Virus record (IMG/VR): IMGVR_UViG_3300021399_000164
Location: 1,293 to 65,292 of that record
DNA: 64,000 bases
Direction: 5' to 3' (one strand)
Source: a virus
In this document: positions 6,244 to 29,219 of the stretch, piece after piece
How positions within the stretch are numbered: the first letter of the stretch is position 1
Layout: each line of letters starts with the position of its first letter
Program-made: the position numbers and the translations under genes
Notes under the pieces: model-generated
The model's database searches: none
The model's input: only the letters and a program-made list of their open reading frames with translations
Told to the model about the DNA's origin: nothing

Positions 6244-7245
6244 TTAATTTGTTTTGTTTTTAATAGTTATTTTTGCATAGCCTTTACGCTTTGTCATTTT
6301 TGCATACTGCTCCGCATATCGTCTTGCTTTACGTGGGTACACGTTCGCATAATAATCAAAGAAAGCTTTATAGTCAACGCTCTTGCTTTCAGTCGCATCT
6401 ATTCTTGTTATTGTGAACTCATCATTCTTGACAGACTTTATTTCTTTCTCAACCATGAAATCATACAATTTCTGCTTGAACTCTTCGACAGCTTTCTCAC
6501 GTTGTTTTATTTCCGCAAGTAGTGTTATCATCTTGTCGAACTCAGTCTTCACATTAACTGGCAACAAGTCCGCATTGACCTCATCTTCATCATAATACTC
6601 AACGAGGTCATCAAGATACTCATCTATGAGTTTTAGTGCTTTCTTGATGTTGAAAGGCGGGTTGATGAATCTGACTGTGCCGATTTCCATTCTGTCTGGG
6701 TCGAACTCGAGACCATTCGGGTCTGTTAAATCAAGACCATTCGTGTCATAAGTCACCAACATAAGTTTGGTCTTCCATCCTTCTTTTGTCCTGTCCTTAA
6801 TTTTTTCCCTTGCTATGATATGATGAATGTAAAGTTGTCCTTTGTATTGGTCTCTTGTTCCTTTCCAATTTTCTTTTGTGGTCTTTACTTCATACACATA
6901 CAACGTCTTTGTCTCTTCATCTTCAAGCACGATGTCAGGATGTGTAATCAACTTGAAATTGTGACCTCCATATTCTTTTGACACCCATAGTGGATTGGAA
7001 AGATAATGCTTGTCTGATTGCAAAGCCAGTTGCTCAAATATCGTGTTCTCGATGATGTCACCAAAACGCATTGCATCCGTCACGACATTCTCTTGCGGCT
7101 CTATCAAACCCTTTACTATTGCGAGTCTTTTTCGTGCCGACTTTGGCACATATCCCATCGTTGCCACTTGGGCGAGCAAACGACCGTCAGACGAGCCAAG
7201 ACAACCTTTTCTTGTGTTGATAATTTCTTGTTTGTAGTCTACCAT
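6244..7245 (-). CDS. YqaJ/lambda-exonuclease-like recombination nuclease
   Basis: RKGCLGSSD, AMRFG..IE, HPD...YEVKT (PD-(D/E)xK), QLY; adjacent to recT. Confidence 0.8.
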   Translation of the reverse strand: MVDYKQEIINTRKGCLGSSDGRLLAQVATMGYVPKSARKRLAIVKGLIEPQENVVTDAMRFGDIIENTIFEQLALQSDKHYLSNPLWVSKEYGGHNFKLITHPDIVLEDEETKTLYVYEVKTTKENWKGTRDQYKGQLYIHHIIAREKIKDRTKEGWKTKLMLVTYDTNGLDLTDPNGLEFDPDRMEIGTVRFINPPFNIKKALKLIDEYLDDLVEYYDEDEVNADLLPVNVKTEFDKMITLLAEIKQREKAVEEFKQKLYDFMVEKEIKSVKNDEFTITRIDATESKSVDYKAFFDYYANVYPRKARRYAEQYAKMTKRKGYAKITIKNKTN

Positions 7246-7249
7246 TTTT

Positions 7250-7594
7250 TTAATCTGCTAATGTTTTTATTACGTTTATATCTCTCACTACAACATCGTT
7301 CTGATAGAACGTCACACCATTTTTCTCTGCCTTGTAGGCGTTAAGCCGTCCAAGTATGTTGACCAAACATCCGTTGTGACAGTTAACAGCTTGCAAGTAT
7401 TTTACAAGTTTATGGTCAAAAACCTCTATCCTGATACTGATGTGTTCTTTGTTTTCAGTAGAGTCTTTCAGCTCCTTGTCGAATGATTTTACTTGGAGCG
7501 TGAACGATGCATACACACGCCCTTCTATCGTGCGAGAATATCGGAAATCATTTCCGACTCGTCCTTCAAGGACTAATATGTTCTTGTGCCGCAT
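7250..7594 (-). CDS. SSB-like OB-fold protein lacking an acidic tail
   Basis: N.LVLEGRVGND...VNILGRL pattern of SSB. Confidence 0.7.
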   Translation of the reverse strand: MRHKNILVLEGRVGNDFRYSRTIEGRVYASFTLQVKSFDKELKDSTENKEHISIRIEVFDHKLVKYLQAVNCHNGCLVNILGRLNAYKAEKNGVTFYQNDVVVRDINVIKTLAD

Positions 7595-7901
7595 ATCTTC
7601 TTACAATTTCTTGCCCAATATCATCCGCTTTCTTTCTGAACTCCGCATCATACTTGTAATCGTCACCATACTTTTTCAGGGAGTTGATTACGGTGGTATG
7701 ATGACGATTAAGGAATCGTCCTATTTTTGCACATCCTGCGCCACAGAACACGTTGCATAACTTTGCAAGTATTTCCCTTGCCTGAATTATATCTTGTGTT
7801 CTTCGTTGCTCTATGAGCTGTGTCAATGATATTCCATAATAATCACACACACACGATGCAACGTTTTCCAGTTCTATTTTTTTTCCCATATCAGAAATCA
7901 T
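7566..7901 (-). CDS. DnaA C-terminal-domain-like HTH protein
   Basis: VCDYYGIS...RR...AR...IGRFLNRHHTTVINS, matching DnaA domain IV. Confidence 0.75.
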   Translation of the reverse strand: MISDMGKKIELENVASCVCDYYGISLTQLIEQRRTQDIIQAREILAKLCNVFCGAGCAKIGRFLNRHHTTVINSLKKYGDDYKYDAEFRKKADDIGQEIVRRYAAQEHISP

Positions 7902-8271
7902 CTATAGGTTCTTCCAACTCCATAACATCATCCGTGTTCGGTGTGTCCTCTTTGACGACACGTGCGATAGTGATGTCACTTACAAGTACGGACAGTTGTA
8001 CAAATCCCTTGTTTGACTTTGAATTGCTCAACTTACCACGGACGTTGGCAAAGTCACCTTTCTTCACATCTATCTCTTTCAGATATTCAACTTGCTTTTC
8101 GTTGAACACCATCAAAGATATGAATGTCGGATAAGACTCCGTTTTGCCATTTCGGTGCTGGTAAGTGTTAGTTATAATTTTAATTGTCGCATATTGTTTT
8201 TCGGTCTTAGTGGTTTTGTAAGCCACATCATTGACACGACCGCTTAAAAACACTTCGTTTTGGTTTATCAT
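7891..8271 (-). CDS. ssb: single-stranded DNA-binding protein
   Basis: NEVFLSGRV, KKGDFANVRGKL, acidic C-terminus EEPIDDF. Confidence 0.8.
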   Translation of the reverse strand: MINQNEVFLSGRVNDVAYKTTKTEKQYATIKIITNTYQHRNGKTESYPTFISLMVFNEKQVEYLKEIDVKKGDFANVRGKLSNSKSNKGFVQLSVLVSDITIARVVKEDTPNTDDVMELEEPIDDF

Positions 8272-8273
8272 AT

Positions 8274-8468
8274 TTATTCGTTGTTTATGTATTTGTTGTA
8301 GTACTTATCCATACCCCACCATTGCCAAAGGTAGGTCATGGCAATCACATCAATCAGGAAAGCAATCTTCGTTGCTACAAAAGATTCAAAATTGTCTGTT
8401 TCCGCAATCAGCAAGATGAAACTTGCAATGAGCATAATTGCCAAGATAGTTGTTTTAATTGTTTTCAT
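8274..8468 (-). CDS. small 2-TM protein
   Basis: Two hydrophobic segments. Confidence 0.6.
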   Translation of the reverse strand: MKTIKTTILAIMLIASFILLIAETDNFESFVATKIAFLIDVIAMTYLWQWWGMDKYYNKYINNE

Positions 8469-8585
8469 AATCTCTATATTATATTGTTTTTAAGTTAATA
8501 AATAATTCTTTGAAATAATCGCACCTATTTTCACAAACAAGTGCGACCGAACACTATGAAAAATCTAACAAAACATTAATAACAT

Positions 8586-8630
8586 TTGTGGTCATAGTCG
8601 GAATCGAACCGACACTTAAACCGTTTGACC
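8586..8630 (-). ncRNA. tRNA-like minihelix (acceptor stem plus T-arm only)
   Basis: GGTCAAA-CGGTTTAAGT-GTCGG TTCGATT CCGAC-TATGACC-A-CAA. Confidence 0.6.
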
Positions 8631-8772
8631 GTCTATTTATAAAAGCAAGTCTATTTTCGCAAACCGACTTTGCTTTTTTGGAAGTTTCCGCAACTCCTTG
8701 CGTTCACTTCCCACACTCTTAAATACTAAATAATCTAAAATACCATAATTATTATAAATCACAAAATAATAT

Positions 8773-8806
8773 TGCAAAGTTAAGCAATAATTTTGAATAT
8801 TCCAAA
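8773..8806 (-). promoter_or_regulatory. Bacteroidetes-type promoter with conserved box
   Basis: Minus strand TTTGGAATATTCAAAA-N8-TAACTTTGCA. Confidence 0.8.
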
Positions 8807-8812
8807 TGGTTT

Positions 8813-9094
8813 TCAAGAAAATTTCTTTAGCATCTCTTGAAATTTACCAAGAAGCGAAAGAAACTTTGTTTCAAATTCTTTCTTGAGTATTTCTTTATCA
8901 AAAGGGGGCACATCGTCATCTTGTTCTACGTATATGCCAAATGTATGTAACATTTTGGCGGATGCAAGTGCCATTATCATCATCACATCCATTGTGCTGT
9001 TTGCCTCATCAGAGCAAAATGCAAGAATGGAATTTGCATAATCCTCAATTTTCCTCGCACTTTCTGGGGTAAATTTTTTCAATGAATCATCCAT
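8813..9094 (-). CDS. hypothetical protein
   Basis: 93 aa ORF, ACAACTATG start context. Confidence 0.65.
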   Translation of the reverse strand: MDDSLKKFTPESARKIEDYANSILAFCSDEANSTMDVMMIMALASAKMLHTFGIYVEQDDDVPPFDKEILKKEFETKFLSLLGKFQEMLKKFS

Positions 9095-9109
9095 AGTTGT
9101 TGTGTTTTT

Positions 9110-9313
9110 TTATTTGTTATACAATTCGTTTGCCCTGTCTACGACCATTTGCCGACATTCGTTGTCGAGATTCGCATACCAATATAAGGTGTTTTTTGAT
9201 TCCACCCATTTGTTGTATATATGCAATCCAAGGTTTTCACCAAAGACCGTTTGTGCCTCGTATGGTGTCCATTTGTTGAACATATACCACATGAAATTCG
9301 TTACTTCATTCAT
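9110..9313 (-). CDS. hypothetical protein
   Basis: Start moved to MNEVTNF, overlapping the upstream stop. Confidence 0.6.
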   Translation of the reverse strand: MNEVTNFMWYMFNKWTPYEAQTVFGENLGLHIYNKWVESKNTLYWYANLDNECRQMVVDRANELYNK

Positions 9314-9515
9314 CGTATAATAATTTTTTGTAATTATCTTTGTAATACTTTGTTGTAGCGTCTGCGATTGCGAGAGCATCAATCGGCTCTCGCTTTGCAA
9401 GGTACAACTTATACAATTCCCATGTGCGTTTTTCCCAGTCTATTTCGTGCTGGTCACACATCTTGCGGTTTATGGATTGCACCGCATTCATTGTTTGCAT
9501 TTCAATGTTATTCAT
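9306..9515 (-). CDS. hypothetical protein
   Basis: 69 aa, IDWEKR motif, operon-packed. Confidence 0.6.
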   Translation of the reverse strand: MNNIEMQTMNAVQSINRKMCDQHEIDWEKRTWELYKLYLAKREPIDALAIADATTKYYKDNYKKLLYDE

Positions 9516-9517
9516 AA

Positions 9518-9754
9518 TTATGTTGTTACTAAGTTAATATCAGGTGTTTCGATAACAGCACCGAATCTTGTAATCGGTCTGATTCTGTATCCGAACTTAA
9601 ATTCGGACACATCTATCAGTCCGTTTTCGGTCTGGACTTTGCATTCGTTGCGTTTGCAGAATGCCTTTATCTCTCGTTCTGACATAATCGTCACCATCTT
9701 CCCGTTAGGGAATGTTGCAACTACCTTGTAGCGGTCTTCCATTGTGTTTAGCAT
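9518..9754 (-). CDS. hypothetical protein
   Basis: 78 aa ORF in operon. Confidence 0.6.
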   Translation of the reverse strand: MLNTMEDRYKVVATFPNGKMVTIMSEREIKAFCKRNECKVQTENGLIDVSEFKFGYRIRPITRFGAVIETPDINLVTT

Positions 9755-9993
9755 ATCTTATTTGATTTGATTAAAGTTTTTAGTATTGCTTTATTTCGTT
9801 CCTGATTTTCCCAATTAACTCTTCTGGGGAAGTTGCATATATATATTTTATTTATATGTCCCCATTTCGGATTATAACTGAAATGTGCTTCAAACCATTT
9901 TCTAACTGTCGTAAAAGAAAACGATTTTGTGTCCGTCTATGTTTTCAGTAAAACATTTGTTTGGACTAGATAATGCTTCGTTTAATAGTTCTA

Positions 9994-10590
9994 TCATATG
10001 TTTAAGTCTTTAAATATATCTTCAATGTCGTTACAATTGTCAATATCAGGGAAATCAATCCCCAAAGAATCCGCAAAAGCGATAGCATCATCGGTTTCAT
10101 CAAAGAGGAAGAATCCTTTGCTTGATATGTTCAGCCATTGTGGCGATGTTCCGTAACCACCACCTCCAGTACGAATACGAATCCAATCGTTTTCAGGTGT
10201 GCCCTCAATCTCAATGAGTAAGCAATCCCATTGTCCGATACGACCTGCATCACCGTCAGCGCCATTGCCCTTGGCAAGGACTTTGTATGTAGCGGTGTTG
10301 TTTATCCAACCACCTATCCATCCATTGCCACGGCGTGTGTATCTTCCTTTAGATGAAAGCAACAAATAAACTTTGTTGTCGTTTAACTTGTTTATTCTTG
10401 GACGCCCTGATTTTGTCAGTCCTATGGTGTAATCGAAGTTACATCCACGGGTCAGTTCGCAATCAACAGGACAAGCAAGTCTTATTTCCTTGCGTCCACG
10501 CCCGTTTTCACCGACACAAATTTGATTCAATGTGCCAAACTCCATTTCCTTTGACTCGGCACTAAGCCTTGATACATTAGTAAAAATCAT
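9994..10590 (-). CDS. hypothetical Gly-rich protein
   Basis: 198 aa ORF, GADGDAGRIGQW motif. Confidence 0.7.
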   Translation of the reverse strand: MIFTNVSRLSAESKEMEFGTLNQICVGENGRGRKEIRLACPVDCELTRGCNFDYTIGLTKSGRPRINKLNDNKVYLLLSSKGRYTRRGNGWIGGWINNTATYKVLAKGNGADGDAGRIGQWDCLLIEIEGTPENDWIRIRTGGGGYGTSPQWLNISSKGFFLFDETDDAIAFADSLGIDFPDIDNCNDIEDIFKDLNI

Positions 10591-10621
10591 AGATAAGAAA
10601 ATTTTAAAAGTTATTTATTAT

Positions 10622-10822
10622 TTATTTAAAAGAAAGATAATAATCCGCTTCCTTTGCGATACGTTTTGCCCACTCATAAAACTCGGGGGCAAGGTCACGA
10701 CCATCGCAATCATCCAAAGGTTCATAGCCTTCTTCTTGGGTGTATTCGTATCGTTCCATTATTTGACGAGCCGATTTTAAGATGCTTTCAAACTGCTTTA
10801 CATCTCCATAAATTGTTGCCAT
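10622..10822 (-). CDS. hypothetical protein
   Basis: 66 aa, AAAACTATG start. Confidence 0.6.
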   Translation of the reverse strand: MATIYGDVKQFESILKSARQIMERYEYTQEEGYEPLDDCDGRDLAPEFYEWAKRIAKEADYYLSFK

Positions 10823-10842
10823 AGTTTTGTTGCGTTTTGAAG

Positions 10843-10879
10843 TTCCACGGCAAGTGATAGTGAACTTTGCCGTGGAACG
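10843..10879. terminator. intergenic stem-loop
   Basis: GTTCCACGGCAA...TTGCCGTGGAAC 12-bp inverted repeat. Confidence 0.5.
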
Positions 10880-10887
10880 TGTTAAAC

Positions 10888-11172
10888 TTACTTTACCATC
10901 TCGGAATCACAAAGAAGAACGTTGCCGACAATTATATCAGTCACTCCTCTTTTCTGAAAGATAAGCGAAAGACAGTTTGTAGCAAGTGCATTGACTGGGA
11001 GACCCAACAATTTTCCTTCTTCATTAACAACCATAATCTGACCATTATGCAGTTCTACGATTTCGATATGTCCACCTACAAATCCTCTTAGCTCCTCCAG
11101 AGAGAAGTCTGTTCCGTTCTTAGGTGTGACGTCTATTACGTCTAAATTTGTCTTTAAAAGTTTTGCTTTCAT
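10888..11172 (-). CDS. DUF3846-like protein
   Basis: LEELRGFVGGHIE, VVNEEGKLLGLPVN..AT, IVGNVLLC. Confidence 0.75.
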   Translation of the reverse strand: MKAKLLKTNLDVIDVTPKNGTDFSLEELRGFVGGHIEIVELHNGQIMVVNEEGKLLGLPVNALATNCLSLIFQKRGVTDIIVGNVLLCDSEMVK

Positions 11173-11224
11173 AATCATTGTTTTGTTTGTGGGTGACGGA
11201 AGAACCGCCACCCTGTTTAATAAA

Positions 11225-11386
11225 CTATCGGAGCATCATTGCCAGACGTGCTGGAATGACTTTGTTCATGTTGCAAGCATTGCAACAAACTCCGTTTGCT
11301 TTCACTGGCGTGGGATTGTTCCCGAATCCCCTAATAATCTGCTTTCCACAGATACAACACTTTCTTTCTTTCATAATTGTTTCCAT
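11225..11386 (-). CDS. small Zn-finger protein
   Basis: CCICG...GNNP...CCNACN; start moved downstream of the promoter. Confidence 0.65.
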   Translation of the reverse strand: METIMKERKCCICGKQIIRGFGNNPTPVKANGVCCNACNMNKVIPARLAMMLR

Positions 11387-11410
11387 AATAATTGTGATTT
11401 TGTTTTTCGT

Positions 11411-11444
11411 TGCAAAGTTAAGTAATAATTTTGAATACGTAAAA
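11411..11444 (-). promoter_or_regulatory. Bacteroidetes-type promoter, variant box
   Basis: Minus strand TTTTACGTATTCAAAA-N8-TAACTTTGCA. Confidence 0.7.
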
Positions 11445-11510
11445 TAATTTGTAGAAAAATCTTTACTTTTAAGAATTATTAACAAATATAAATAATATAC
11501 ACATATGATT

Positions 11511-12320
11511 TCAAGATAGAATAGAACGTCTGATGGATTTAATTGCACTTGACAATTTCAATTGGAATTGTAAGTCAGTCAGTCCAGCCAAATCCCACTT
11601 TAAGAACAATTTCCCAGTTCCGTCCATATCCTTGAAATCAACCATCAGTTGACGAATTTGACTTCTTACGTCAACTTTTGTGTTGATTTCATTCCACGTC
11701 CATTCTTCGGGATTATCGCTTTGTGTCGCATCAGGAAACACTTTACGGAATATTTTCATGAGTGCCTGTGTATCACGGTTTTCCTGAAAGTGTCTCTTCA
11801 TTGTGTTTCCACGTTTAGCCCCTTCTTCCTTGAGCTGTTCGTGGCTCTTGGCAGCTCTTGCAGCTTGCCACTTTTCGGTAGCACCACCCAGCTTGCATCC
11901 CTGACGTTTTTTCTCATCCAAGGCTTTCTTTGTGCGGTCGCTACACAACTCCCTTTCATACTGTGCTACCGAGGCGAACACTCCCAAAATCATTGTGTTC
12001 ACCTGTGGCATGTCGCAGAAGTGAATGTCAATGCCAGTGTTGATTACCTTAAAGGTAAATTCAACATCACGGGCAAGTCTGTCTAACTTGGCGATGACCA
12101 ATGGGATGTCTTTCTTGGAACAATATTCAATTGCTGTCCAAAGACCTTTGCGGTCTCGGTGTGTTCCAGATTCAACATCCGTAAATTCAGCAACCATCTC
12201 GCCGTTGTTGTGTGCTATAAAATCAGCACACATTTTTCTCTGGGCATCCAATCCCAATCCAGTAGCTCCTTGTTTCTGTGTAGAAACTCGAAGATATGTT
12301 ACATATTTTTTCTTTTCCAT
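11511..12320 (-). CDS. serine recombinase (resolvase/invertase family)
   Basis: YLRVST.KQ, DVESG, KLDRLAR, AQYERE...RTK.AL. Confidence 0.92.
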   Translation of the reverse strand: MEKKKYVTYLRVSTQKQGATGLGLDAQRKMCADFIAHNNGEMVAEFTDVESGTHRDRKGLWTAIEYCSKKDIPLVIAKLDRLARDVEFTFKVINTGIDIHFCDMPQVNTMILGVFASVAQYERELCSDRTKKALDEKKRQGCKLGGATEKWQAARAAKSHEQLKEEGAKRGNTMKRHFQENRDTQALMKIFRKVFPDATQSDNPEEWTWNEINTKVDVRSQIRQLMVDFKDMDGTGKLFLKWDLAGLTDLQFQLKLSSAIKSIRRSILS

Positions 12321-12342
12321 ATTTTAATTATAATTTATAAGA

Positions 12343-12627
12343 TTAGATTTCGTCTTCGTCTATTTCAAACTGAGAAAGGTATGTGTCAACGGCTTCAAAA
12401 GCCAATCGACCAACTTCTTCTGCTCCGCATACTTTATAGCATGCGTTCATGGCCTTGTCAAGGGCCACAGCATCTTCAAACGAGTATTGCCAGTCTGCGC
12501 CTTCAAAAGCAGCCCATACGAATGCTTCATCAGGTGCCCATACTAAGTTCAAATCTTCTGTTATGTACTTAAAGAATGCTTTCACATCTTCAATTGTCTC
12601 GATTTTGTTAATTTCAATTTTTTTCAT
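12343..12627 (-). CDS. hypothetical protein
   Basis: Start moved to MKKIEIN after an A-rich leader. Confidence 0.65.
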   Translation of the reverse strand: MKKIEINKIETIEDVKAFFKYITEDLNLVWAPDEAFVWAAFEGADWQYSFEDAVALDKAMNACYKVCGAEEVGRLAFEAVDTYLSQFEIDEDEI

Positions 12628-12785
12628 TTTTTCTCTATTATTAGATATTAATAACTTAATGCCCGTCATGCCGATAGCTCAGCAATCTTTTCTTATTCCT
12701 TAGGTTACTTACGCCAGCCACCGCCAAGGTAGTAGAAAATCATTCCGAAAAATATTATAAAACTCATACTGAAAAAAATTATTAG

Positions 12786-13067
12786 TTAAACAATCATCTG
12801 ATGTTCTTCTTTGTTTTTCTTTACCCATTCAGCGACTTGATTTTCAGATACATCATGATAAACATTCTTTGTAGCCACAATCACATTGAATAAATCAACA
12901 TAAACATCGTGTTGCCATATAATGTATTTCACGTATAACTCTGGTTTAACGCATCTTCTTAACCAATCGTTGTAATCAGCAATTCTTTCTTCAAGTGGTC
13001 TTGACGTGTCACCATACAAGACAGCATCCTTAATTTTTTGGATGTCTTCAAAAATCCATTTTCCCAT
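12786..13067 (-). CDS. hypothetical protein
   Basis: 93 aa ORF. Confidence 0.6.
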   Translation of the reverse strand: MGKWIFEDIQKIKDAVLYGDTSRPLEERIADYNDWLRRCVKPELYVKYIIWQHDVYVDLFNVIVATKNVYHDVSENQVAEWVKKNKEEHQMIV

Positions 13068-13262
13068 TTTTTAAATATTTTATTTGTTAATAATAATTTG
13101 CCCGTCAAGTCTGATAGCACATCTGTTCAACCACCGCTTTCAAATTTAGGCTATTGCCAAGGCACATTTTCAAAGGTTGGTTACGTACCGCAAATACAAG
13201 CCTTTTTTTGTGGGCGCAATCCTCATCAAAGGGTAGGCTCAAAGACCGTTGCGCCCTGTCTT

Positions 13263-13655
13263 TTATGCAGTTTCAGAAAGCCATTTGTCAACTTTAGAAT
13301 TATATTCTTCGTCTGACCAAGATGGGTCACGTTCAATCATACCATCAATGGTATCAGTCAACATATCACAATAGACATCATCAATATGTTTCTTGACAAC
13401 TATCACCATCTTATCTTTGTTTTCAACTGTAAAAAGCTCGTAAGTGTCAGTCCTTTCGTTGAGTGCAACGAACACCCATCCTTGATGAATGAATCCGTTC
13501 ACTAACAATCCGAGAGCTGGCATCTCGTTTACATAAACACAAATAATTTTTGATATTCCCCAGCTTGTTGCAATTCGCTGATTGATTTGGCAAAGTGAAA
13601 TCATTGCGACGTGCTTTGCGTACTCGTCACCTTTTCTGATTCTAATTGTTTCCAT
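13263..13655 (-). CDS. hypothetical phage protein
   Basis: Start moved to METIRIR after an A-rich leader. Confidence 0.7.
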   Translation of the reverse strand: METIRIRKGDEYAKHVAMISLCQINQRIATSWGISKIICVYVNEMPALGLLVNGFIHQGWVFVALNERTDTYELFTVENKDKMVIVVKKHIDDVYCDMLTDTIDGMIERDPSWSDEEYNSKVDKWLSETA

Positions 13656-13669
13656 AATGTTTTGTTTTT

Positions 13670-13933
13670 TTATTTTAAATGATTTATTCTTACGTAATAT
13701 AGAAAACTTAATGTCGGACTTACCGAATAGCACCGAGCCGACTTTATTGTAAAGATGTCGCCAACTTTATAACGTTTGTAGTTATAGTTGGCGGCGTTTA
13801 GACCTATCACGAATGCACGCCCCTGAGAGTCTTCACATATCAAGGACTCAAATTCATTGCCTTGCTCGTCAAATCCTGTTTGAATTTCTTTGACGAGCAA
13901 GACGAGATTGGTTACTTTTTTTGTTGTCTTCAT
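13670..13933 (-). CDS. hypothetical protein
   Basis: 87 aa ORF. Confidence 0.6.
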   Translation of the reverse strand: MKTTKKVTNLVLLVKEIQTGFDEQGNEFESLICEDSQGRAFVIGLNAANYNYKRYKVGDIFTIKSARCYSVSPTLSFLYYVRINHLK

Positions 13934-13937
13934 TTTT

Positions 13938-14234
13938 TTATTGGAGAATCTTTCCGATTTTAGCTGATGTCAAAATTGCGATGTCGTTGGCCTCGCTTAT
14001 TCTTTGCTTTTGCTCCGCCGTCTTCGCAAAGATATACCTGATGTCAGCACTCTCAATCCAGTGGTCAAGCATCCTCTTGATGAAGGCGGCCTCCATTCTT
14101 CTGAGTTTGACTTCCTTTTTTTGTTTGTTCTTAATTGCTTGCTTTGCAATTGTTATCTTTCCCATTGCTTTGGTTATAGATTCAATCATTGGTTGGTATG
14201 CAATTTCTTCCGTTAAATCGTCCAAGATTACCAA
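13938..14234 (-). CDS. hypothetical basic protein; 5' end possibly frameshifted
   Basis: The best-context ATG (14253) is one base out of frame at an AAAA run. Confidence 0.5.
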   Translation of the reverse strand: MVILDDLTEEIAYQPMIESITKAMGKITIAKQAIKNKQKKEVKLRRMEAAFIKRMLDHWIESADIRYIFAKTAEQKQRISEANDIAILTSAKIGKILQ

Positions 14235-14260
14235 CGCTTCTTCTAATTTTCATAATGAAT

Positions 14261-14647
14261 TTAAATTTTAACGATTCCCAATATTATGTTTCTTTGCCGC
14301 CCGAGCTTCGTCAACAGATTCACGCACGACTGATTGTCGCCAGCATTGTAATAAGAGACAGCACGATTCACCACTTCGTCATCCGTGCCCAATGAATCGC
14401 ACCAGCGTTTTGCAGATTCCTGTGCCATTTTCTTTTCGTCTTCTGTTTCGCAAGCCGAAAGTCTGGAAGCGTGAATCATAGACTCACACACTTCGCCATC
14501 GGAGAAAGAATATTTCACTCCCCAACAGCCGTGGGCGATGTAGTTTGTTATTACTCCGAAAGTGTTCACCTTTTTGCCAGCATCTGGCTGATAACATTTT
14601 TCTGCCTCAAACTTAACTGGCAGACCAATCATTGACTTTGTTTCCAT
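14261..14647 (-). CDS. hypothetical protein
   Basis: 128 aa ORF. Confidence 0.65.
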   Translation of the reverse strand: METKSMIGLPVKFEAEKCYQPDAGKKVNTFGVITNYIAHGCWGVKYSFSDGEVCESMIHASRLSACETEDEKKMAQESAKRWCDSLGTDDEVVNRAVSYYNAGDNQSCVNLLTKLGRQRNIILGIVKI

Positions 14648-14917
14648 AAAATATATTTAGTATTTATTTATTAATTTAATTAATTATTAATTATTAGAAT
14701 CTGCGTTTGTATGAAGTGCGACGCCATTTGTCGCACTCCTGACAGTTCTTGACCAGTCCCCAAATGAGGACTGTCGCAGACGTTATAGCAATTACGATAT
14801 CCATAGAAAAAACAAGTTTGTTAGAATGAACGAAATTGTTATTAATACGAGCTGTGCTGGGGTCTTTTCCCCATCACGAAAAAGGTTAAGAATCGTTTTC
14901 ATAATGATATGTTTTTG

Positions 14918-15094
14918 TTAGTTGAACGAAATAATGTTGTTAACTGTGTGGCACCAGGCTCCGAAACAGAACCTTGTCACGTCGGCAAATCTAGCTGACC
15001 GCCACGAATAAGCGGTCTTGCATACATCCGCTATGAAAAACGGAAATAACAAAACGTATGCAATAATAGTTATAATGTTTGTCAGAACTTTCAT
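14918..15094 (-). CDS. small hydrophobic protein (not in ORF track)
   Basis: MKVLTNIITIIAYVLLFPFFIA..., 58 aa, ACAAAAATG context. Confidence 0.5.
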   Translation of the reverse strand: MKVLTNIITIIAYVLLFPFFIADVCKTAYSWRSARFADVTRFCFGAWCHTVNNIISFN

Positions 15095-15157
15095 TTTTGT
15101 TTTTTGTGTTTGTGGGCGACTGACAAGCAGCCGCCCGATGATAGTGATTTTTCGGTG

Positions 15158-15325
15158 TTATACACCGTAGAACTTACAAATGTCTTCCGTTGAACCGTAC
15201 TTTGTCACGTACTCCTCAAGAGCACGGAACTCGTTGATTAACATTTCACGAGTTTCTTCGTCCATATAGATGTTGTTAACTACTTCGTAATCAATCTCAA
15301 TAGCTCTAGCAATTTTCTGTGCCAT
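15158..15325 (-). CDS. small acidic protein (not in ORF track)
   Basis: MAQKIARAIEIDYEVVNNIY..., 55 aa. Confidence 0.6.
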   Translation of the reverse strand: MAQKIARAIEIDYEVVNNIYMDEETREMLINEFRALEEYVTKYGSTEDICKFYGV

Positions 15326-15370
15326 TTTCTTATACCCTTGTACGTGTCGGGCGCAACGTTTTGTTATTAA

Positions 15371-16192
15371 TTATTTATTAGTAAATACTTTCTTTATGAG
15401 TTCGTCTGCATCAATGCAGTTGTATGCGTCATTGATGCCAAGCACATAGTCAGGTTTCAACTGTGGTAGGTTTTTCTTTATGAGATTCCTTACCACGTTG
15501 TTGTCGTATTGTGCGCTGCCATATCCGTGACCGAAAGACGAGCGAACACCCACGGTCACCTCTTGCCAACGGAACCCGTGCCGCCGCATCATAGCGGGGT
15601 TTACCAAAGGATAAGCGCATTTCAATAAGTTGAAATACTGACCGCTGTCCTTTATCTTTACAACTGGCATGATGTGTTGCCCTTTTGAATATGAGCAGTC
15701 ACATACGTATAAGTTTATCCTAATTCCGTTTTTCTGCTCAAGCTTGTAGAGTGCTTGTAACATCTTAAACGATGCCTGTGCCAAAGCCGTAGAAGACCAA
15801 CCGCCGTTTGCGCTGATGTTGTACACGACTGTTAGCACCTTCGCTTTCTGCTGAACGGTTACATTTCGCATCATATTGCGTGGACTACCAGCAAGGTATG
15901 CTGGTACGCAAGGAGCGTAGCCCGCATAACTCAGAATTTGTTTTTGCTTGCTTTGTGGCTTTACCGATTGAATCGGTTTGCCGTTGGTGGTCCCCTGCTG
16001 AATCTTTTTGGCGGCATCAGCGTCGCCAAACATCATCAGGGTTTGGGCATCATCCCATGTGCGGGTGCCAGCCCAACCTGATTCAGATGTTTTCAACGCT
16101 GACTCTCCTAAGAACGCCTTTTGCGTTTTTGCGTTCTTCAGGTACTCCCCGAATTCATTCAGGGAGTTGTATTTTAAAACTATATCTTTCAT
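15371..16192 (-). CDS. VWA-like partner of MoxR ATPase
   Basis: G.APCVPAYLAGSP..M, degenerate MIDAS (VYNISANG), P.MMRR; adjacent to the AAA+ gene. Confidence 0.65.
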   Translation of the reverse strand: MKDIVLKYNSLNEFGEYLKNAKTQKAFLGESALKTSESGWAGTRTWDDAQTLMMFGDADAAKKIQQGTTNGKPIQSVKPQSKQKQILSYAGYAPCVPAYLAGSPRNMMRNVTVQQKAKVLTVVYNISANGGWSSTALAQASFKMLQALYKLEQKNGIRINLYVCDCSYSKGQHIMPVVKIKDSGQYFNLLKCAYPLVNPAMMRRHGFRWQEVTVGVRSSFGHGYGSAQYDNNVVRNLIKKNLPQLKPDYVLGINDAYNCIDADELIKKVFTNK

Positions 16193-16206
16193 TGTCGGTT
16201 TGTTTT

Positions 16207-17337
16207 TTAACGATATACTTCAACACCGTTCTTGTATATTTTGGTCAATGCTTGCAACCACTTATTCTCGGGATGTGTCGCAAAGTCAAGATTAAGACCA
16301 TTACACATCATCCGTACCTCATCGGTGGATTTCTCTTTTAGCACAGATGATATAATGTTTTCTTCAATCGGCTCGCCTATCTCTTGGCCTTCAACCAAGT
16401 GATTTATATTTCGGTATGAGAGTATTTGAGAAACGCCGTTGCGCTTTGCAGACTCACGAAGCAAGTGTATAAAATCAACAAGCTGCTTGTCACCTTTCGC
16501 ACACTTGAGCTCAATACGCTCATCGTAATCAACGAAAATATATTTGAAACGATTGAGTGTGCTAGCGTCAATCATATTAGACGCTGTGTACTCTTCCGTG
16601 GCTCCAGTGCCGCCAGAGTTACCTGCGCCAATTACCCTGAAATCGGGGTGGGCTTCAACCATACCCTCGACAGGAAAAGAGAAACACCGCTGAGCCATAG
16701 CACCGTTAAACGCTTTCAGTGCGTTCTCGTTGGAGCAGTCCATTTCGTCAAACAGCAGCAAACCGCCGTGTTTCATTGACTTGTAGAAATCATTTTCCAC
16801 TAAACGGCCTTCAGCGTCTGCAAAGCCTTTGAGCTCAAATACATCACTAACTTTGCAAATCATGTAAAACGGCAAGCCTAACGCTTGCGCAGTTTGTTTC
16901 GCCAATTCGCTTTTGCCAGTACCCGACGGGCCCCACAAATACGGGGCGATTCCCTTCTTAACCATTTTGCAAAGCATATCAAACTTCTTGTGTCTGACGG
17001 GCTCATCTGTGTTCACGATTTGCACGGCGGGTTCTTCAACCTGAGGCTGTTCCTGTTCAACGTTTTCAGGTTCAGGTTGCGGTTTCGGTGTACGTGGCTT
17101 GCGTGGGCCACGTCCTCTGTGCTCTGCTTTCCATCCGCAAATAACCGTCAATAACGGGCATCCGTTTTCGTTTTCAGTCACACCGTCCCAATATAATTGG
17201 GTGTAGGTGTTAAAAAAACGGCGGCCTGGCTTGCTTCCGTCAGGTCTAAAAACCACTTTCCCGTCAGGGGTCACGCCCCTGAAATTAGTGTTCAACTCGA
17301 TTCTTTGTCCGCTTGTTGTGTTTGTTAAGATAACCAT
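16207..17337 (-). CDS. MoxR/CbbQ-like AAA+ ATPase
   Basis: Walker A GPSGTGKS, Walker B LLFDEMD, AHPDFRVIGAGN, D.STLNRF. Confidence 0.9.
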   Translation of the reverse strand: MVILTNTTSGQRIELNTNFRGVTPDGKVVFRPDGSKPGRRFFNTYTQLYWDGVTENENGCPLLTVICGWKAEHRGRGPRKPRTPKPQPEPENVEQEQPQVEEPAVQIVNTDEPVRHKKFDMLCKMVKKGIAPYLWGPSGTGKSELAKQTAQALGLPFYMICKVSDVFELKGFADAEGRLVENDFYKSMKHGGLLLFDEMDCSNENALKAFNGAMAQRCFSFPVEGMVEAHPDFRVIGAGNSGGTGATEEYTASNMIDASTLNRFKYIFVDYDERIELKCAKGDKQLVDFIHLLRESAKRNGVSQILSYRNINHLVEGQEIGEPIEENIISSVLKEKSTDEVRMMCNGLNLDFATHPENKWLQALTKIYKNGVEVYR

Positions 17338-17377
17338 AGTGCTTTAATTTTAGAAATTAATAAATGAATAAAAAAAC

Positions 17378-17478
17378 TTGAAGGAAAGGGCGGAATCGAA
17401 CCGCCCGTAATCAAGCAGCCAGCAAACGAAATTGCTCGGCCACCGTTACGTTGCGCCACAGCACATTGCAACTCTCCC
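17378..17478 (-). ncRNA. tRNA-like element with extended anticodon arm
   Basis: Acceptor GGGAGAG/CTTTCCT, D-like TTGC/GCAA, long CGTAA..TTACG arm, T-arm GGCGG TTCGATT CCGCC. Confidence 0.6.
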
Positions 17479-18302
17479 ACCTGATGGCTAGTCAGGTTAT
17501 AGCCAACTATCTTATCTCATAGGCAAATCGTTTTTAAATTAATAACTAGTTAGCAAACACCAATTGGAAAAACAACCCGTCCGCTTGCCGCTCCCTGACT
17601 GTTCACCCAATCAGGAAAGCGGCAAGCAAGGTACGTATGTTGCACACACCAAAACCGAAATGAAAATCAGTTGTAAGGTGTGGAGCAACGGCCCCCGTAC
17701 CTTTGTGCCCTCTTTGCTTAATCGGTTTGTCAGGCGGCAAACGAAAGCAACCGCAAATAAAACGCTTTCGTTTCAGGTTGCAACCTGATTGCAAACCGAT
17801 TGGCCCGCAAAGTTTTCTGGTCCGCCGTTTCTTTTTCATCAATCGTTATTCGCTTTCACTTATTGATTTGTTCTGCTTTCAGATGTTTCTCAAATTGTCA
17901 AGCTCGCTTGAAGTGGCCGCGCTGTCACAGCGCTATCGACTAGCAAAGCCTTAAATGAGCTAACAACGGGTTGTCAGCAGAACAAAAGCCGTAAACTACT
18001 CACTTTGGCGCAATGATTAAATTGCAGAAACGGGCCTTTGTTTGATATCCCATATTTCAAAGCGCGGCTTGCTTGCTTTCGCTTGCTTGCTTATTTGCGC
18101 TCGCTGTCAGGTGTCAACCTGAGTGACTGACTATCGACTTAAAATAAAATAGACTGATTTGCACTTTGCTAAAATCAACCTGATTAAATCAAACCCGCAC
18201 TTTTGCAAAGGTTTTAGTCAGGCACAAAAATTTATCTTTAACAGCGTACCGATTTGCCACCGCTGTGGCCGGGCATCAGGTTTTTCTAAACCTGATAAAA
18301 AT
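17479..18302 (-). ncRNA. candidate large structured non-coding RNA
   Basis: No credible ORF; several perfect 8-11 bp local and long-range helices; bracketed by tRNA-like elements. Confidence 0.55.
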
Positions 18303-18372
18303 TTGTGGGCCGTGGCTGATTCGAACAGCCGCAAAGCTAGTCAGAACTAGCAAAGCACCGAATTAACGGCCC
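18303..18372 (-). ncRNA. tRNA-like element without D-stem or canonical anticodon loop
   Basis: GGGCCGT/ACGGCCC acceptor then A-CAA, GCTAG/CTAGC arm, T-arm GGCTG TTCGAAT CAGCC. Confidence 0.65.
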
Positions 18373-18381
18373 AACCTGAAT

Positions 18382-19029
18382 TTAGGCAATTTCCGCCAAT
18401 TTAGTATTCATTTCGCATTCTGAAATTACGCCCTGATTATAGGCGGCAATGATGGCGGCGGCGGCGCGCTGCTGCTCACGCTCGCGCTTTGCGGCTGATT
18501 TGGCGGCTGCTGCTAGCTGCTGCTCGTTGATTTTCACGATTTCAGCGAAAGCGCCCAAAAATCCTAGAAGCGTGAAAGGAATTGGCTGTAATACGCCGTA
18601 GCCGTTTTCGGTTTTAACCACATCACGGCCTTTCGTGTCGAAACGCACATCTACTGTGTCCGTGTCGTAGTCAAAGACAGGGGCATTATCGAGCTCTTCA
18701 GGCGTAAAGAATTGGCCCATCAGGGCAAACGAATGCAATTTTCGCGGCAAGGAATAGCAGAACCGGCCGCGGCTATCCTTAGTAAGCAAGTCAGCGCAAA
18801 AGCCATAACGGCCGCCCACGCCCTTTGCTTTAGCAATATCCTTGATTTTGTCACATACAACCTTTACGTTTTTGTGCTCGCAAAACTCATTCTTTTTAGC
18901 TAATTTAGTCAGCGAATTAATGTAGAAAAACGGACTGATATTCTTGATATCAGATTTTGCGTTGTTGATAACCTGACTAGTTGTTGCCTTGCTGTTGGCC
19001 TTGTTTGTTTTGTTATTAGAAGTTTTCAT
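18382..19029 (-). CDS. hypothetical protein, first gene of the leftward transcript
   Basis: 215 aa, ATTATG start directly after the promoter at 19095-19127. Confidence 0.7.
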   Translation of the reverse strand: MKTSNNKTNKANSKATTSQVINNAKSDIKNISPFFYINSLTKLAKKNEFCEHKNVKVVCDKIKDIAKAKGVGGRYGFCADLLTKDSRGRFCYSLPRKLHSFALMGQFFTPEELDNAPVFDYDTDTVDVRFDTKGRDVVKTENGYGVLQPIPFTLLGFLGAFAEIVKINEQQLAAAAKSAAKREREQQRAAAAIIAAYNQGVISECEMNTKLAEIA

Positions 19030-19094
19030 AATTAAAAAAAGATTTTAAATGTTATTAAAAAATTGTTTTGTTGTCGCTGTTTTCAAAATTGTAT

Positions 19095-19127
19095 TGCAAA
19101 GTTACGACTATCTTTTTGTTCTGTCAA
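19095..19127 (-). promoter_or_regulatory. leftward promoter lacking the conserved box
   Basis: Minus strand TTGACA...TAACTTTGCA. Confidence 0.65.
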
Positions 19128-19409
19128 TAGTTTAGTGTAATTATTTTTTTCAATTTAAATGTTTTTAACAATTAAGAAAATAACTTTCTCTATAAAAATA
19201 TCACTATCATTTTCATTTATAGGTAGTTATAAAGAAAGTGAAAAATATCTGCATTTTTACCAATTAACAAATTTTAAGTCAGAAAAGGACAATAAATTTA
19301 GCAAAAAAAGTAATATCGTACAAAAAGCAAATTTTAAGAATCTGACAAAATGTAAGCAAAATAAACAATTTAGTAACATTTTGTAAAGTAAAATGCCTTT
19401 TTTACTTAC

Positions 19410-19452
19410 TGACACTTTTACGATTTGACACTTTTTACGTATTGACACTTTT
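19410..19452 (+). repeat. three direct repeats TGACACTTTT
   Basis: Copies at 19410, 19426 and 19443. Confidence 0.8.
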
Positions 19453-19595
19453 ATTTTGTGTACTATTTTACTTTTTTTCTGTCAATTATCAGAATAAAAA
19501 AACACTTATTTTAAATGCCTGAAAAACAAACAAAAACAACCTATTTTCTTTGCATGCTGCTTAAATAGTGAAAGATTAAAAATATACAATGCAAA

Positions 19596-19955
19596 TAACT
19601 AAAAATCAGCAATCTAATAACAAAATATGCGAGAATATTGTATATTTTACCAAAATTGCATAAAAATTGAATATTACAACAACAGAAATAAACCTGAAAG
19701 AATGCATCTATATAGTTAGTATTACTATTTACTAATTATAGTTTGTGTGTAGTTAGTAAATAGTAGATAGTTAGTAATAGTGTGTATGTAGGTAGTTAAA
19801 ATAAATCAATATATTATAAAGATATTCTTATATAGATTTATTCTAATTAGTAAATCAGGTATATTTTAAACAATTAACTGAAAATCAATGATATATCAGC
19901 ATTTTAGGCAATTTGAAACGAACAATATATTTTGTCTAAATTACTGAAAATCAGC
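19596..19955 (+). repeat. three dispersed repeats TwACTrAAAATCA
   Basis: Copies at 19596, 19875 and 19941. Confidence 0.65.
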
Positions 19956-20494
19956 GAGTTGATACCGGTACATCTTCATTTTTCAGGTGGCGGGGGGGGG
20001 CGTGTGCGGCGGCGGCAGGGATGGTGCATATCACCCTCTTGTCGAAAAAAAAATTTCCGAAAAAAATTTTCAGAAAAACGAAAAAACGGAAAATTTGTTT
20101 GTTTGTCATTTATATTGTTTATTGTTTTGGTTGATTAAATTAAGAATTGTGCTTGATTTAGTGTCTGCGGTGCGTTGTATTGCGTTTTATTTATTCAGAT
20201 GATAAATTGTCCATCTTTTTATTTTTCGTGCGTTACATGGCATTTTATGGAATTTTTGCTTAATTAGTTATAATTTTGCATGTTTTTTTTGTTTATGGGG
20301 TATAAAAAATTTCTTTTTTTTTGTTTTTTTTCTTTTTTTTATAGTACATAGTACATAGTGTTTAAATATATTAGTTATGCATACTAGTATAGTGTTTTAG
20401 TTAATTGTTATTGTTAATATTTAGTAGTTGTTGTATTTATTTTTATATATTATATATATAATAGTTGTTTTGTTGTTTTTATTTTGCCAAAATA

Positions 20495-29104: not shown

Positions 29105-29176
29105 TGCCATATCGTATAATGGTCAGTACAACAGATTTTGGTTCTGTCGGTCAAGGTTCGATTCCTTGTGTGGCAA
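29105..29176 (+). tRNA. tRNA-Gln(TTG)
   Basis: TGCCATA/TGTGGCA acceptor, GTAT/GTAC D-arm, ACAGA TTTTGGT TCTGT anticodon arm, CAAGG TTCGATT CCTTG T-arm; CCA not encoded. Confidence 0.9.
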
Positions 29177-29219
29177 CAAGTAGTTTTATTTTTTTTATTC
29201 ACCAAAACTGATTTTATTT

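Follow-up and report, generated by a model that had tools for sequence, protein, structure and literature searches.

Three transfer RNA (tRNA)-like elements that keep the acceptor and T-arm half of a tRNA and do not decode are present in a 64,000-nt stretch of viral DNA, comprising bases 1293–65292 of the 65,292-nt IMG/VR record IMGVR_UViG_3300021399_000164 (completeness estimate, 82%). The virus is a phage of gut Bacteroidales, the presumed host lineage. The elements, designated E1, E2 and E3, are real and lie beyond chance expectation in this stretch, hereafter called the window. We tentatively favor the view that they are tRNA-derived top halves serving as processing marks for RNase P and RNase Z, by analogy with the t-elements of plant mitochondria, because each has kept the acceptor/T half together with a host-type trailer and because they stand at the borders of genes and of a structured stretch.

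All three elements are found on the minus strand exactly where an earlier reading of the sequence alone had placed them (Table 1). As that reading described, each has a perfect 5-bp T stem closed by a TTCGAWT loop: GGCTG-TTCGAAT-CAGCC in E3, GGCGG-TTCGATT-CCGCC in E2 and GTCGG-TTCGATT-CCGAC in E1. The acceptor stem it assigned to all three pairs at 7/7 positions in E2 and E3, with G-U pairs in E2, but at only 6/7 in E1. With this qualification, a canonical top half is seen in 3/3 elements, with a 12-bp acceptor/T stack, U54-U55-C56-R57-A58 and G53:C61, and all three conform to the canonical tRNA pattern of a 7-bp acceptor, a 5-bp T stem, a UUCRANY loop and a G53:C61 pair. The discriminator is A in E3 and T in E2, followed in both by CAA. 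By direct reading, a G3:U70 pair is absent from all three acceptor stems.

The decoding halves differ from one element to the next, also as previously described. E3 has no D stem; a 9-nt linker replaces the D arm and is accompanied by a 2+6-bp arm with an odd 4-nt loop, UCUG. E2 combines a long D-like hairpin with an overlong 12-bp arm that carries a 6-nt loop, and in E1 the acceptor and T arm are simply joined by 10 nt. A canonical anticodon arm (5-bp stem, 7-nt loop) is found in none of them, and E1 is without any arm. The replaced arms of E2 and E3 are long perfect helices (6–12 bp), not eroded stems. The proposal that selection has preserved an elbow/acceptor shape holds for the acceptor/T-arm half but not for the elbow in E1 and E3, where contact between D loop and T loop is impossible because there is no D loop. 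What E1 and E3 retain is the acceptor/T-arm stack and the T loop, not the elbow.

Table 1. Positions of the tRNA-like elements and associated features in the window (ORF, open reading frame).
Feature	Position	Strand	Description
E3, tRNA-like element	18303..18372	-	Acceptor GGGCCGT/ACGGCCC, perfect 7 bp; tail A-CAA
E2, tRNA-like element	17378..17478	-	101-nt four-way junction; acceptor GGGAGAG/CTTTCCT, 7 bp including two G-U pairs
E1, minihelix	8586..8630	-	45 nt; acceptor GGTCAAA/TATGACC, 6/7 pairs; 10-nt linker; T arm; A-CAA
ORF-free, strongly folding stretch	17479..18302	-	824 nt; bracketed by E3 and E2; candidate large non-coding RNA
Hairpin AUCAGGUUU-AGAA-AAACCUGAU	18273..18297	-	5 nt past E3 3′ end; one of the enriched CAGGUU/AACCUG hairpins
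Hairpin CCUGA-CUAGCCA-UCAGG	17479..17501	-	Ends 1 nt before E2 5′ end
Accessory module	14895..19021	-	215-aa ORF, E3, non-coding stretch, E2, AAA_5, DUF7192 protein, two small ORFs
-7 box TAACTTTG, then CAATA	19097..19104	-	Bacteroidetes type; upstream of 215-aa ORF
-7 box TAACTTTG, then CAATA	8775..8782	-	Identical copy; upstream of E1-containing leader
tRNA-Gln(ttg)	29105-29177	+	Bona fide; sole decoding tRNA of the window; trailer A-CAA like E1/E3

Chance was assessed with 300 shuffled windows searched for a perfect 5-bp T stem around TTCGAWT. Such arms number four in the window, the fourth being that of tRNA-Gln, against 0.18 per shuffle. Adding a 7/7 acceptor leaves three in the window against 0.02 expected (300 shuffles), and a relaxed acceptor rule is passed by four against 0.047 expected. 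Non-decoding elements account for 3/4 of the tRNA-shaped sites in the window. Compared with shuffles, the folds of E3 and E2 gave z = −4.1 and z = −3.6, respectively. ARAGORN behaved as had been predicted for pseudo or missed tRNAs: E3 was called tRNA-??? with a 2-nt anticodon, and E1 and E2 were missed; its transfer-messenger RNA (tmRNA) search found no tmRNA in the window. Rfam at curated thresholds returned only the tRNA-Gln gene in the window. E1 scored 20.4 bits against the tRNA model RF00005, under the 29-bit gathering cut-off and with the D and anticodon arms deleted. The sole Rfam match of E2 was to tRNA-Sec (15.5 bits, E = 7.2), with none to RF00005, and E3 had no Rfam match at E ≤ 10. 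The elements thus share with canonical phage tRNAs the acceptor, the T arm, the discriminator and a host-type trailer like that of tRNA-Gln and of Bacteroidales tRNA genes, but differ from them in having no 7-nt loop on a 5-bp stem, in the missing D arm of E1 and E3, and in falling below the Rfam cut-off.

The 3′ N-CAA that the sequence-only reading had singled out is present in all three elements, but it is an ordinary Bacteroidales tRNA-gene trailer and not a mark of mimics, since the tRNA-Gln gene of the window and Bacteroidales tRNA genes share it. In a census of Bacteroidales genomes (G006–G018, loci L179–L254), the discriminator is followed by C in 82/84 tRNA genes; CAA is the commonest trailer (32/84), and a full CCA is encoded in 5/84. 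The canonical tRNA genes of the first genome, G006, gave C in 32/32, CAA in 16/32 and CCA in 2/32, counts that come partly from a tRNA array on one contig, possibly phage-derived itself; in the 12 further genomes the figures are 50/52, 16/52 (again the commonest) and 3/52. The array, about 20 tRNA genes densely packed at C259:15300–22850 of this metagenome-assembled genome, may be a phage or a tRNA-array element. C after the discriminator is a lineage-wide Bacteroidales convention and may reflect the 3′-maturation pathway. It is clear from this comparison that the complete genomic setting for 3′-end maturation of host tRNAs has been retained in the elements.

The elements are all intergenic and lie on the same strand as the flanking genes. 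The stop codon of the 215-aa ORF is separated from the start of E3 by 9 nt, and the end of E2 from the AAA_5 ATPase start codon by 40 nt; E1 lies between two hairpins in an ORF-free leader of ~340 nt behind the -7 box at 8782. The -7 box at 19104 is likely to be the promoter of a transcript spanning E3, E2 and the non-coding stretch between them. A function as processing signals, one of two raised from the sequence alone, fits this context of stop and start borders, a bracketed structured stretch and the leader of E1; cleavage would be the predicted consequence. The acceptor/T-arm stack and the T loop are what bacterial RNase P, tRNase Z and the CCA-adding enzyme recognize, and minihelices are among their substrates.

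In the mechanism we propose, the elements would be carried within long minus-strand transcripts initiated at the two -7 boxes (19104 and 8782). RNase P would cut at the 5′ end of each element, and RNase Z or an equivalent 3′ pathway would cut after the discriminator. For the transcript starting at 19 kb, the mRNA of the 215-aa ORF would be ended 9 nt past its stop codon, an 824-nt structured RNA would be freed from between E3 and E2, and the AAA_5 mRNA would acquire a new 5′ end 40 nt upstream of its start codon. At E1, leader hairpin RNAs would be separated from the downstream mRNA. Once excised, the elements may have CCA added to them and remain in the cell as stable small RNAs. None of the 40 ORFs scanned with Pfam and PHROGs encodes a recognizable RNA-processing enzyme.

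The closest parallel is found in plant mitochondria, where tRNA-like structures at the 5′ and 3′ ends of mRNAs, the t-elements, are taken as signals for RNase P and RNase Z (PMC1920247). Both sets are non-decoding tRNA-like folds inside longer transcripts, placed at gene borders and regarded as probable signals for RNase P and/or RNase Z. Placement at a gene border in the orientation of the genes is seen for E1–E3 alike, with co-transcription suggested by the -7 boxes. The two differ in that t-elements belong to an organelle and ours to a Bacteroidales phage, in that E2 and E3 carry elaborate substituted arms while E1 is a bare minihelix, and in that cleavage here is predicted from sequence and context. 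Comparable units occur elsewhere. In the vtRNA-miRNA units of murid gammaherpesvirus and in MALAT1 mascRNA, processing of a tRNA-like unit by tRNA enzymes frees an adjoining RNA; these systems are eukaryotic, and the viral units double as pol III promoters, a role inapplicable in a phage. Among phages, the regulatory RNAs C4 of P1/P7 and CI of P4, both processed by RNase P, and the species 1 and 2 RNAs of T4 are small RNAs with tRNA features that are matured by host tRNA enzymes. As for YrlA-type Y RNA, the elements have no Rfam match to it, and none of the 30 larger ORFs submitted to Pfam contains a TROVE (Ro) domain.

The stretch bracketed by E3 and E2 was assigned to the minus strand from its flanking genes and the elements themselves. 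It has no evident coding capacity: each of the six frames of 17340–18400 contains at least 13 stops, and at least 4 remain after recoding any one stop codon. The 2-kb bin to which it belongs has the highest G+C content in the window (0.457), and its fold gives z = −5.7, against +0.8, +0.5, +0.1, −2.6 and −3.2 for five controls of the same length. Long-range complementary arms lie 60–480 nt apart. Between 17 and 19 kb of the window, TCAGG occurs at 13/kb and CCTGA at 11/kb, compared with ~2/kb elsewhere, mostly as inverted pairs (CAGGTT...AACCTG), and there is a perfect 16-bp palindrome at 17773–17788. These pairs could be RNA hairpins or sites for DNA-binding proteins.

E2 and E3 might not be marks at all but built-in domains of one RNA of ~1 kb (E3, the 824 nt and E2) of the GOLLD/ROOL kind, with tRNA-like ends that serve stability, CCA tagging or tethering to tRNA-binding machinery. 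Folded as a whole, the 995 nt reach z = −6.75, and both elements share sequence with the interior: the non-tRNA arm of E2 (17416–17431) and 17731–17746 form a 16-nt direct repeat with 88% identity, the non-tRNA arm of E3 (18346–18356) and 17939–17949 an 11-nt direct repeat with 100% identity, and the D-like arm of E2 (17451–17461) is complementary at 10/11 positions to 18003–18013. Such short repeats could nonetheless be chance or leftovers of duplication. RNA evidence comes from a library (run X13) whose sample may be the one that yielded this DNA as well; the runs with small shares, X4–X20, were not drawn on for habitat. Six contigs of the library match positions 7000–20000 at 100% identity; two of them, including the deepest (8.2), cover 560/824 nt of the interior, and four account for 730 of the 12,177 nt outside it. 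The interior is thus represented in the RNA library, but the contigs stop short of E2 and E3 and leave large parts of 7000–20000 uncovered, so that at this depth they are uninformative on processing or silence.

GOLLD and ROOL are described as large phage-borne RNAs near tRNAs, sometimes with tRNAs in a linker (PMC5737381; bioRxiv 10.1101/2024.12.08.627333). Our stretch differs from them in that its flanking elements are non-decoding, in that it matches no Rfam family, and in that neither homologues nor covariation are at hand. A cmscan of 17300–18450 against all families at E ≤ 10 returned neither ROOL nor GOLLD, no GOLLD-specific search having been made, and RF03087 (ROOL) had no match in the record at E ≤ 10, in a search whose control also gave 0/14 named genomes. 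With no family, no homologue and hence no covariation to set beside the fold and the shared repeats, we regard a single large RNA with E2 and E3 as its domains as unlikely.

Several findings weigh against processing marks around a freed structured RNA. The fold of E1 alone is not significant (z = −1.2), and its acceptor contains a mismatch. Just upstream of E1 stands a terminator-like hairpin with a U run, and transcription may therefore reach this element by read-through only. The plus strand of the 824-nt stretch also folds (z = −6.3, against −5.7 for the minus strand), which makes the strands indistinguishable by folding, and the stretch could act as DNA, for example as inverted repeats bound by a protein. 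The RNA data are assembled contigs that show neither strand nor ends and may include DNA carry-over; the support they lend is weak. In a related phage, represented by a DNA contig from a different sample of the same study, the module is missing and 14894 directly adjoins 19022, with an 11-letter identity at the junction; the 4.1-kb block thus behaves like an accessory unit open to exchange. Of the relatives that were accessible, the closest (G001; RecT 74% identical, 72% complete) is without any tRNA-like element. The elements are consequently dispensable, though apparently maintained where present. Finally, no relative of E2, E3 or the 824-nt stretch was found among GenBank phages, IMG/VR, the fetched loci or JGI metagenomes, and there is hence no covariation for them. 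The individual searches were a megablast of 8000–19000 and a blastn of 17340–18400 against GenBank phages (no match), exact 3′ halves of E3 and E2 against IMG/VR (0 matches), nhmmer against 73 and then 70 fetched loci (nothing for the 824-nt stretch), BLAST against five whole related phage records (chance-level matches only), and a scan of JGI metagenomes with an alignment of P0001 and P0002 (305 pattern matches, 0 confirmed).

Dispensability, with absence from the closest relative and from the contig lacking the module, would also be expected of functionless relics, that is, of tRNA genes whose decoding half was lost through deletions and insertions. The tail is that of an ordinary tRNA gene, and real tRNAs stand at similar places in related phages: in locus L137 an intact tRNA-Gln lies ~110 nt upstream of an E1-like element, and in L141 and L006 real tRNAs lie beside truncated ones. 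L137 also supplies evidence against relics. Its RecT is 44% identical to that of the window, and its gene order matches (recombinase, two small genes, 126-aa ORF homologue, RecE-like, RecT, 177-aa ORF homologue). The counterpart of E1 lies between the same two neighbors and is 58 nt long, with an identical 17-nt T arm and an A-CAA tail. Its acceptor, GGGGGAT/ATCCTCC, differs throughout from that of E1 yet is still paired, as expected for compensatory change, and the hairpin directly upstream of E1 aligns as well. In the nhmmer searches this was the one match for the E1 region, a borderline one (E = 0.058), and the element, which we treat with caution, is spanned by a 211-aa ORF of doubtful start. 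The tRNA-Gln of L137 stands beside the truncated element and does not replace it, whereas intact tRNAs at the sites themselves had been named as the sign of simple decay. Conservation in relatives, a check suggested in advance, is therefore seen for E1, which is syntenic in L137, but not for E2 or E3. A search with the 126-aa neighbor of E1 yielded no relative in IMG/VR.

A wider survey covered 143 phage loci (2.33 Mb) fetched through their AAA_5 and RecT genes. Under strict rules (perfect T stem, TTCRANN loop, 7/7 acceptor), these loci contain 27 distinct tRNA-shaped sites, against 0–3 in five shuffles; 16 are ARAGORN tRNAs and 11 are not decoding by ARAGORN, a count that includes three with odd loops that may be chance, two variants of one element, and one, in L118, inside an ORF. 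The elements of L126 (42 nt) and L118 (61 nt) lie within ORFs of at least 70 aa and are likewise treated with caution; in the remaining non-decoding sites, which measure 58–114 nt, the anticodon arm is stunted or aberrant. One of them, a 64-nt anticodon-less element shared by L053, L056 and L059, has 2/64 variable columns, compared with 25/100 upstream and 18/100 downstream (43/200 in the flanks together), and is on this comparison under purifying selection. Relics would hardly be expected to keep remaining stems that we describe as perfect, to replace lost arms by long perfect helices, to persist in truncated form at one site at a RecT identity of 44% with compensatory acceptor changes, or to make up 3/4 of the tRNA-shaped sites of the window. 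Simple decay is unlikely in view of the replacement helices, the covaried E1 orthologue and the 11/27 non-decoding sites, and we judge functionless relics an unlikely account of the elements.

The second function raised from the sequence alone was that of decoys. During infection, such sponges would divert from real tRNAs those host factors whose target is the tRNA acceptor end or T arm, for instance 3′-end-modifying or -cutting toxins, or tRNA-sensing enzymes. It is exactly the acceptor/T half that is kept, in the same minus-strand block as RecT, the RecE-like exonuclease and the dUTPase, and similar elements recur in related phages; phage tRNAs have been proposed to counter tRNA-targeting defences (PMC10264068). 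The targets of the phage-related tRNases treated in the cited papers are nevertheless the anticodon arm or loop, absent from the elements, and bacterial Schlafen is likewise reported to cleave the anticodon arm (PMC13056530). With no anticodon loop, an element cannot imitate what an anticodon nuclease attacks, and we found no evidence for a decoy function: no defence or anti-defence gene was recognized beside the elements among 40 ORFs (Pfam/PHROGs), and a single copy of each would make a weak sponge unless very highly expressed. Enzymes acting on the acceptor end are possible targets. We consider decoys quite improbable overall.

Integration offers another origin for tRNA fragments. Partial tRNA genes are reported to arise commonly via mobile-element integration (bioRxiv 10.1101/2022.07.05.498093), and E1–E3 could in principle be attP-type sequences copied from the 3′ halves of tRNA genes of the host. 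A serine recombinase gene does lie at 11511–12320, and one RecT relative is classed as a provirus; the recombinase is, however, of the small resolvase/invertase type (269 aa). The 25-nt 3′ half of E1, allowing up to 2 mismatches, occurs in 0/401 sampled Bacteroidales genomes, none of the matches in 401 genomes falls within the T-arm/acceptor halves of E2 or E3, and the elements carry a matching 5′ acceptor strand that an attP site does not need. This origin is largely refuted for the genomes sampled and is hardly credible. We also rejected antisense regulators of the P1 C4 or P4 CI type. C4 and CI act by antisense pairing, and the unpaired parts of E1–E3 have no complementary target in the window: at 0 mismatches, 4/5 unpaired segments have no site there besides their own DNA strand, and the 9-nt linker of E2 has 6 others, about the number expected by chance for that length.

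The gene content of the window is that of a tailed phage, with an SPP1-type portal, a large terminase and a weak match to a major capsid protein, together with a primase/helicase, a sliding clamp and DNA methylases. Its first 19 kb encode, on the minus strand, the dUTPase, RecT, the RecE-like exonuclease, the small serine recombinase, the AAA_5 (MoxR/CobS-like) ATPase and the DUF7192 protein. A homologue of the ATPase, 44% identical, is found on a contig binned with an uncultured Bacteroidales genome, and another (P0002), 66% identical, on a 73-kb contig. Within the module, the 215-aa ORF belongs to no family in Pfam or PHROGs and has sub-threshold Atlas matches only, and nothing was found for the DUF7192 protein beyond the DUF assignment. 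On the minus strand of 18332–18339, the 3′ side of the substituted arm of E3 reads TAGCTTTG, which fits the Bacteroidetes -7 pattern TAnnTTTG; this pattern has 84 matches in the window, so the match inside E3 may well be chance.

Related contigs contain further features of interest. The ORF-poor gap that follows the 64-nt element in L053, L056 and L059 was considered as a second case of an element next to a large non-coding RNA and was rejected, as it proved to be a TAG-recoded phage gene. In a three-way alignment, L056:7230–8150 and the corresponding parts of L053 and L059 vary in a codon-like manner, in-frame TAG standing opposite CAA, CAC and CAT, and TAG appears to serve these phages as a sense codon. 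An 81-nt tRNA directly follows the AAA_5 gene at L056:10842–10922 and L059:10842–10922; its anticodon is read differently by ARAGORN in the two sister contigs, as Ser(act) in one and as Arg(tct) in the other. Three intergenic T-arm-like hairpins with short acceptor-like stems, also treated with caution, occur in a 10.4-kb viral contig of another kind (L225:8900–10250), GGTCGG-TTCGATT-CCGACC twice and GGGCGG-TTCGACT-CCGCC once. An identical CGCAATGAGCGAGG hairpin comes after two of the three, and they look like repeated intergenic processing or termination signals. Lastly, ARAGORN identified a tmRNA gene with the tag AEYDYSFEDEEVAIAA within the tRNA clusters of two IMG/VR viral contigs (L219:262–637 and L221:5470–5845).

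Both tRNA-like processing marks and tRNA-linked large phage RNAs are already known kinds. In open-access papers and preprints, we found no description of anticodon-less tRNA top halves in Bacteroidales phages or of phage transcripts punctuated in this way. In its fullest form, our interpretation is that such top halves constitute an undescribed class in phages of gut and rumen Bacteroidales, used for punctuation by host enzymes, and that two of those in the window define the ends of a new ornate RNA of ~0.8–1 kb, similar in kind to GOLLD and ROOL and unrelated to them in sequence, within a mobile 4.1-kb module that also encodes AAA_5 and DUF7192 proteins. We advance this combined picture as speculative and doubtful as a whole.

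The tRNA genes of phages are usually discussed only as decoders, in terms of codon supply or escape from anticodon nucleases. Non-decoding forms nevertheless account for 3/4 of the tRNA-shaped genes here and for 11/27 in the 143 related loci, and are apparently maintained. Their N-CAA tail, as a lineage-wide Bacteroidales feature, is a useful marker both for host assignment and for recognizing such elements, and the elements themselves draw attention to what may be a new large structured RNA of phages. Should they prove to be processing marks, tRNA punctuation, best known from organelles, would also organize the transcripts of Bacteroidales phages, and tRNA finders would be silently dropping a whole class of functional elements.

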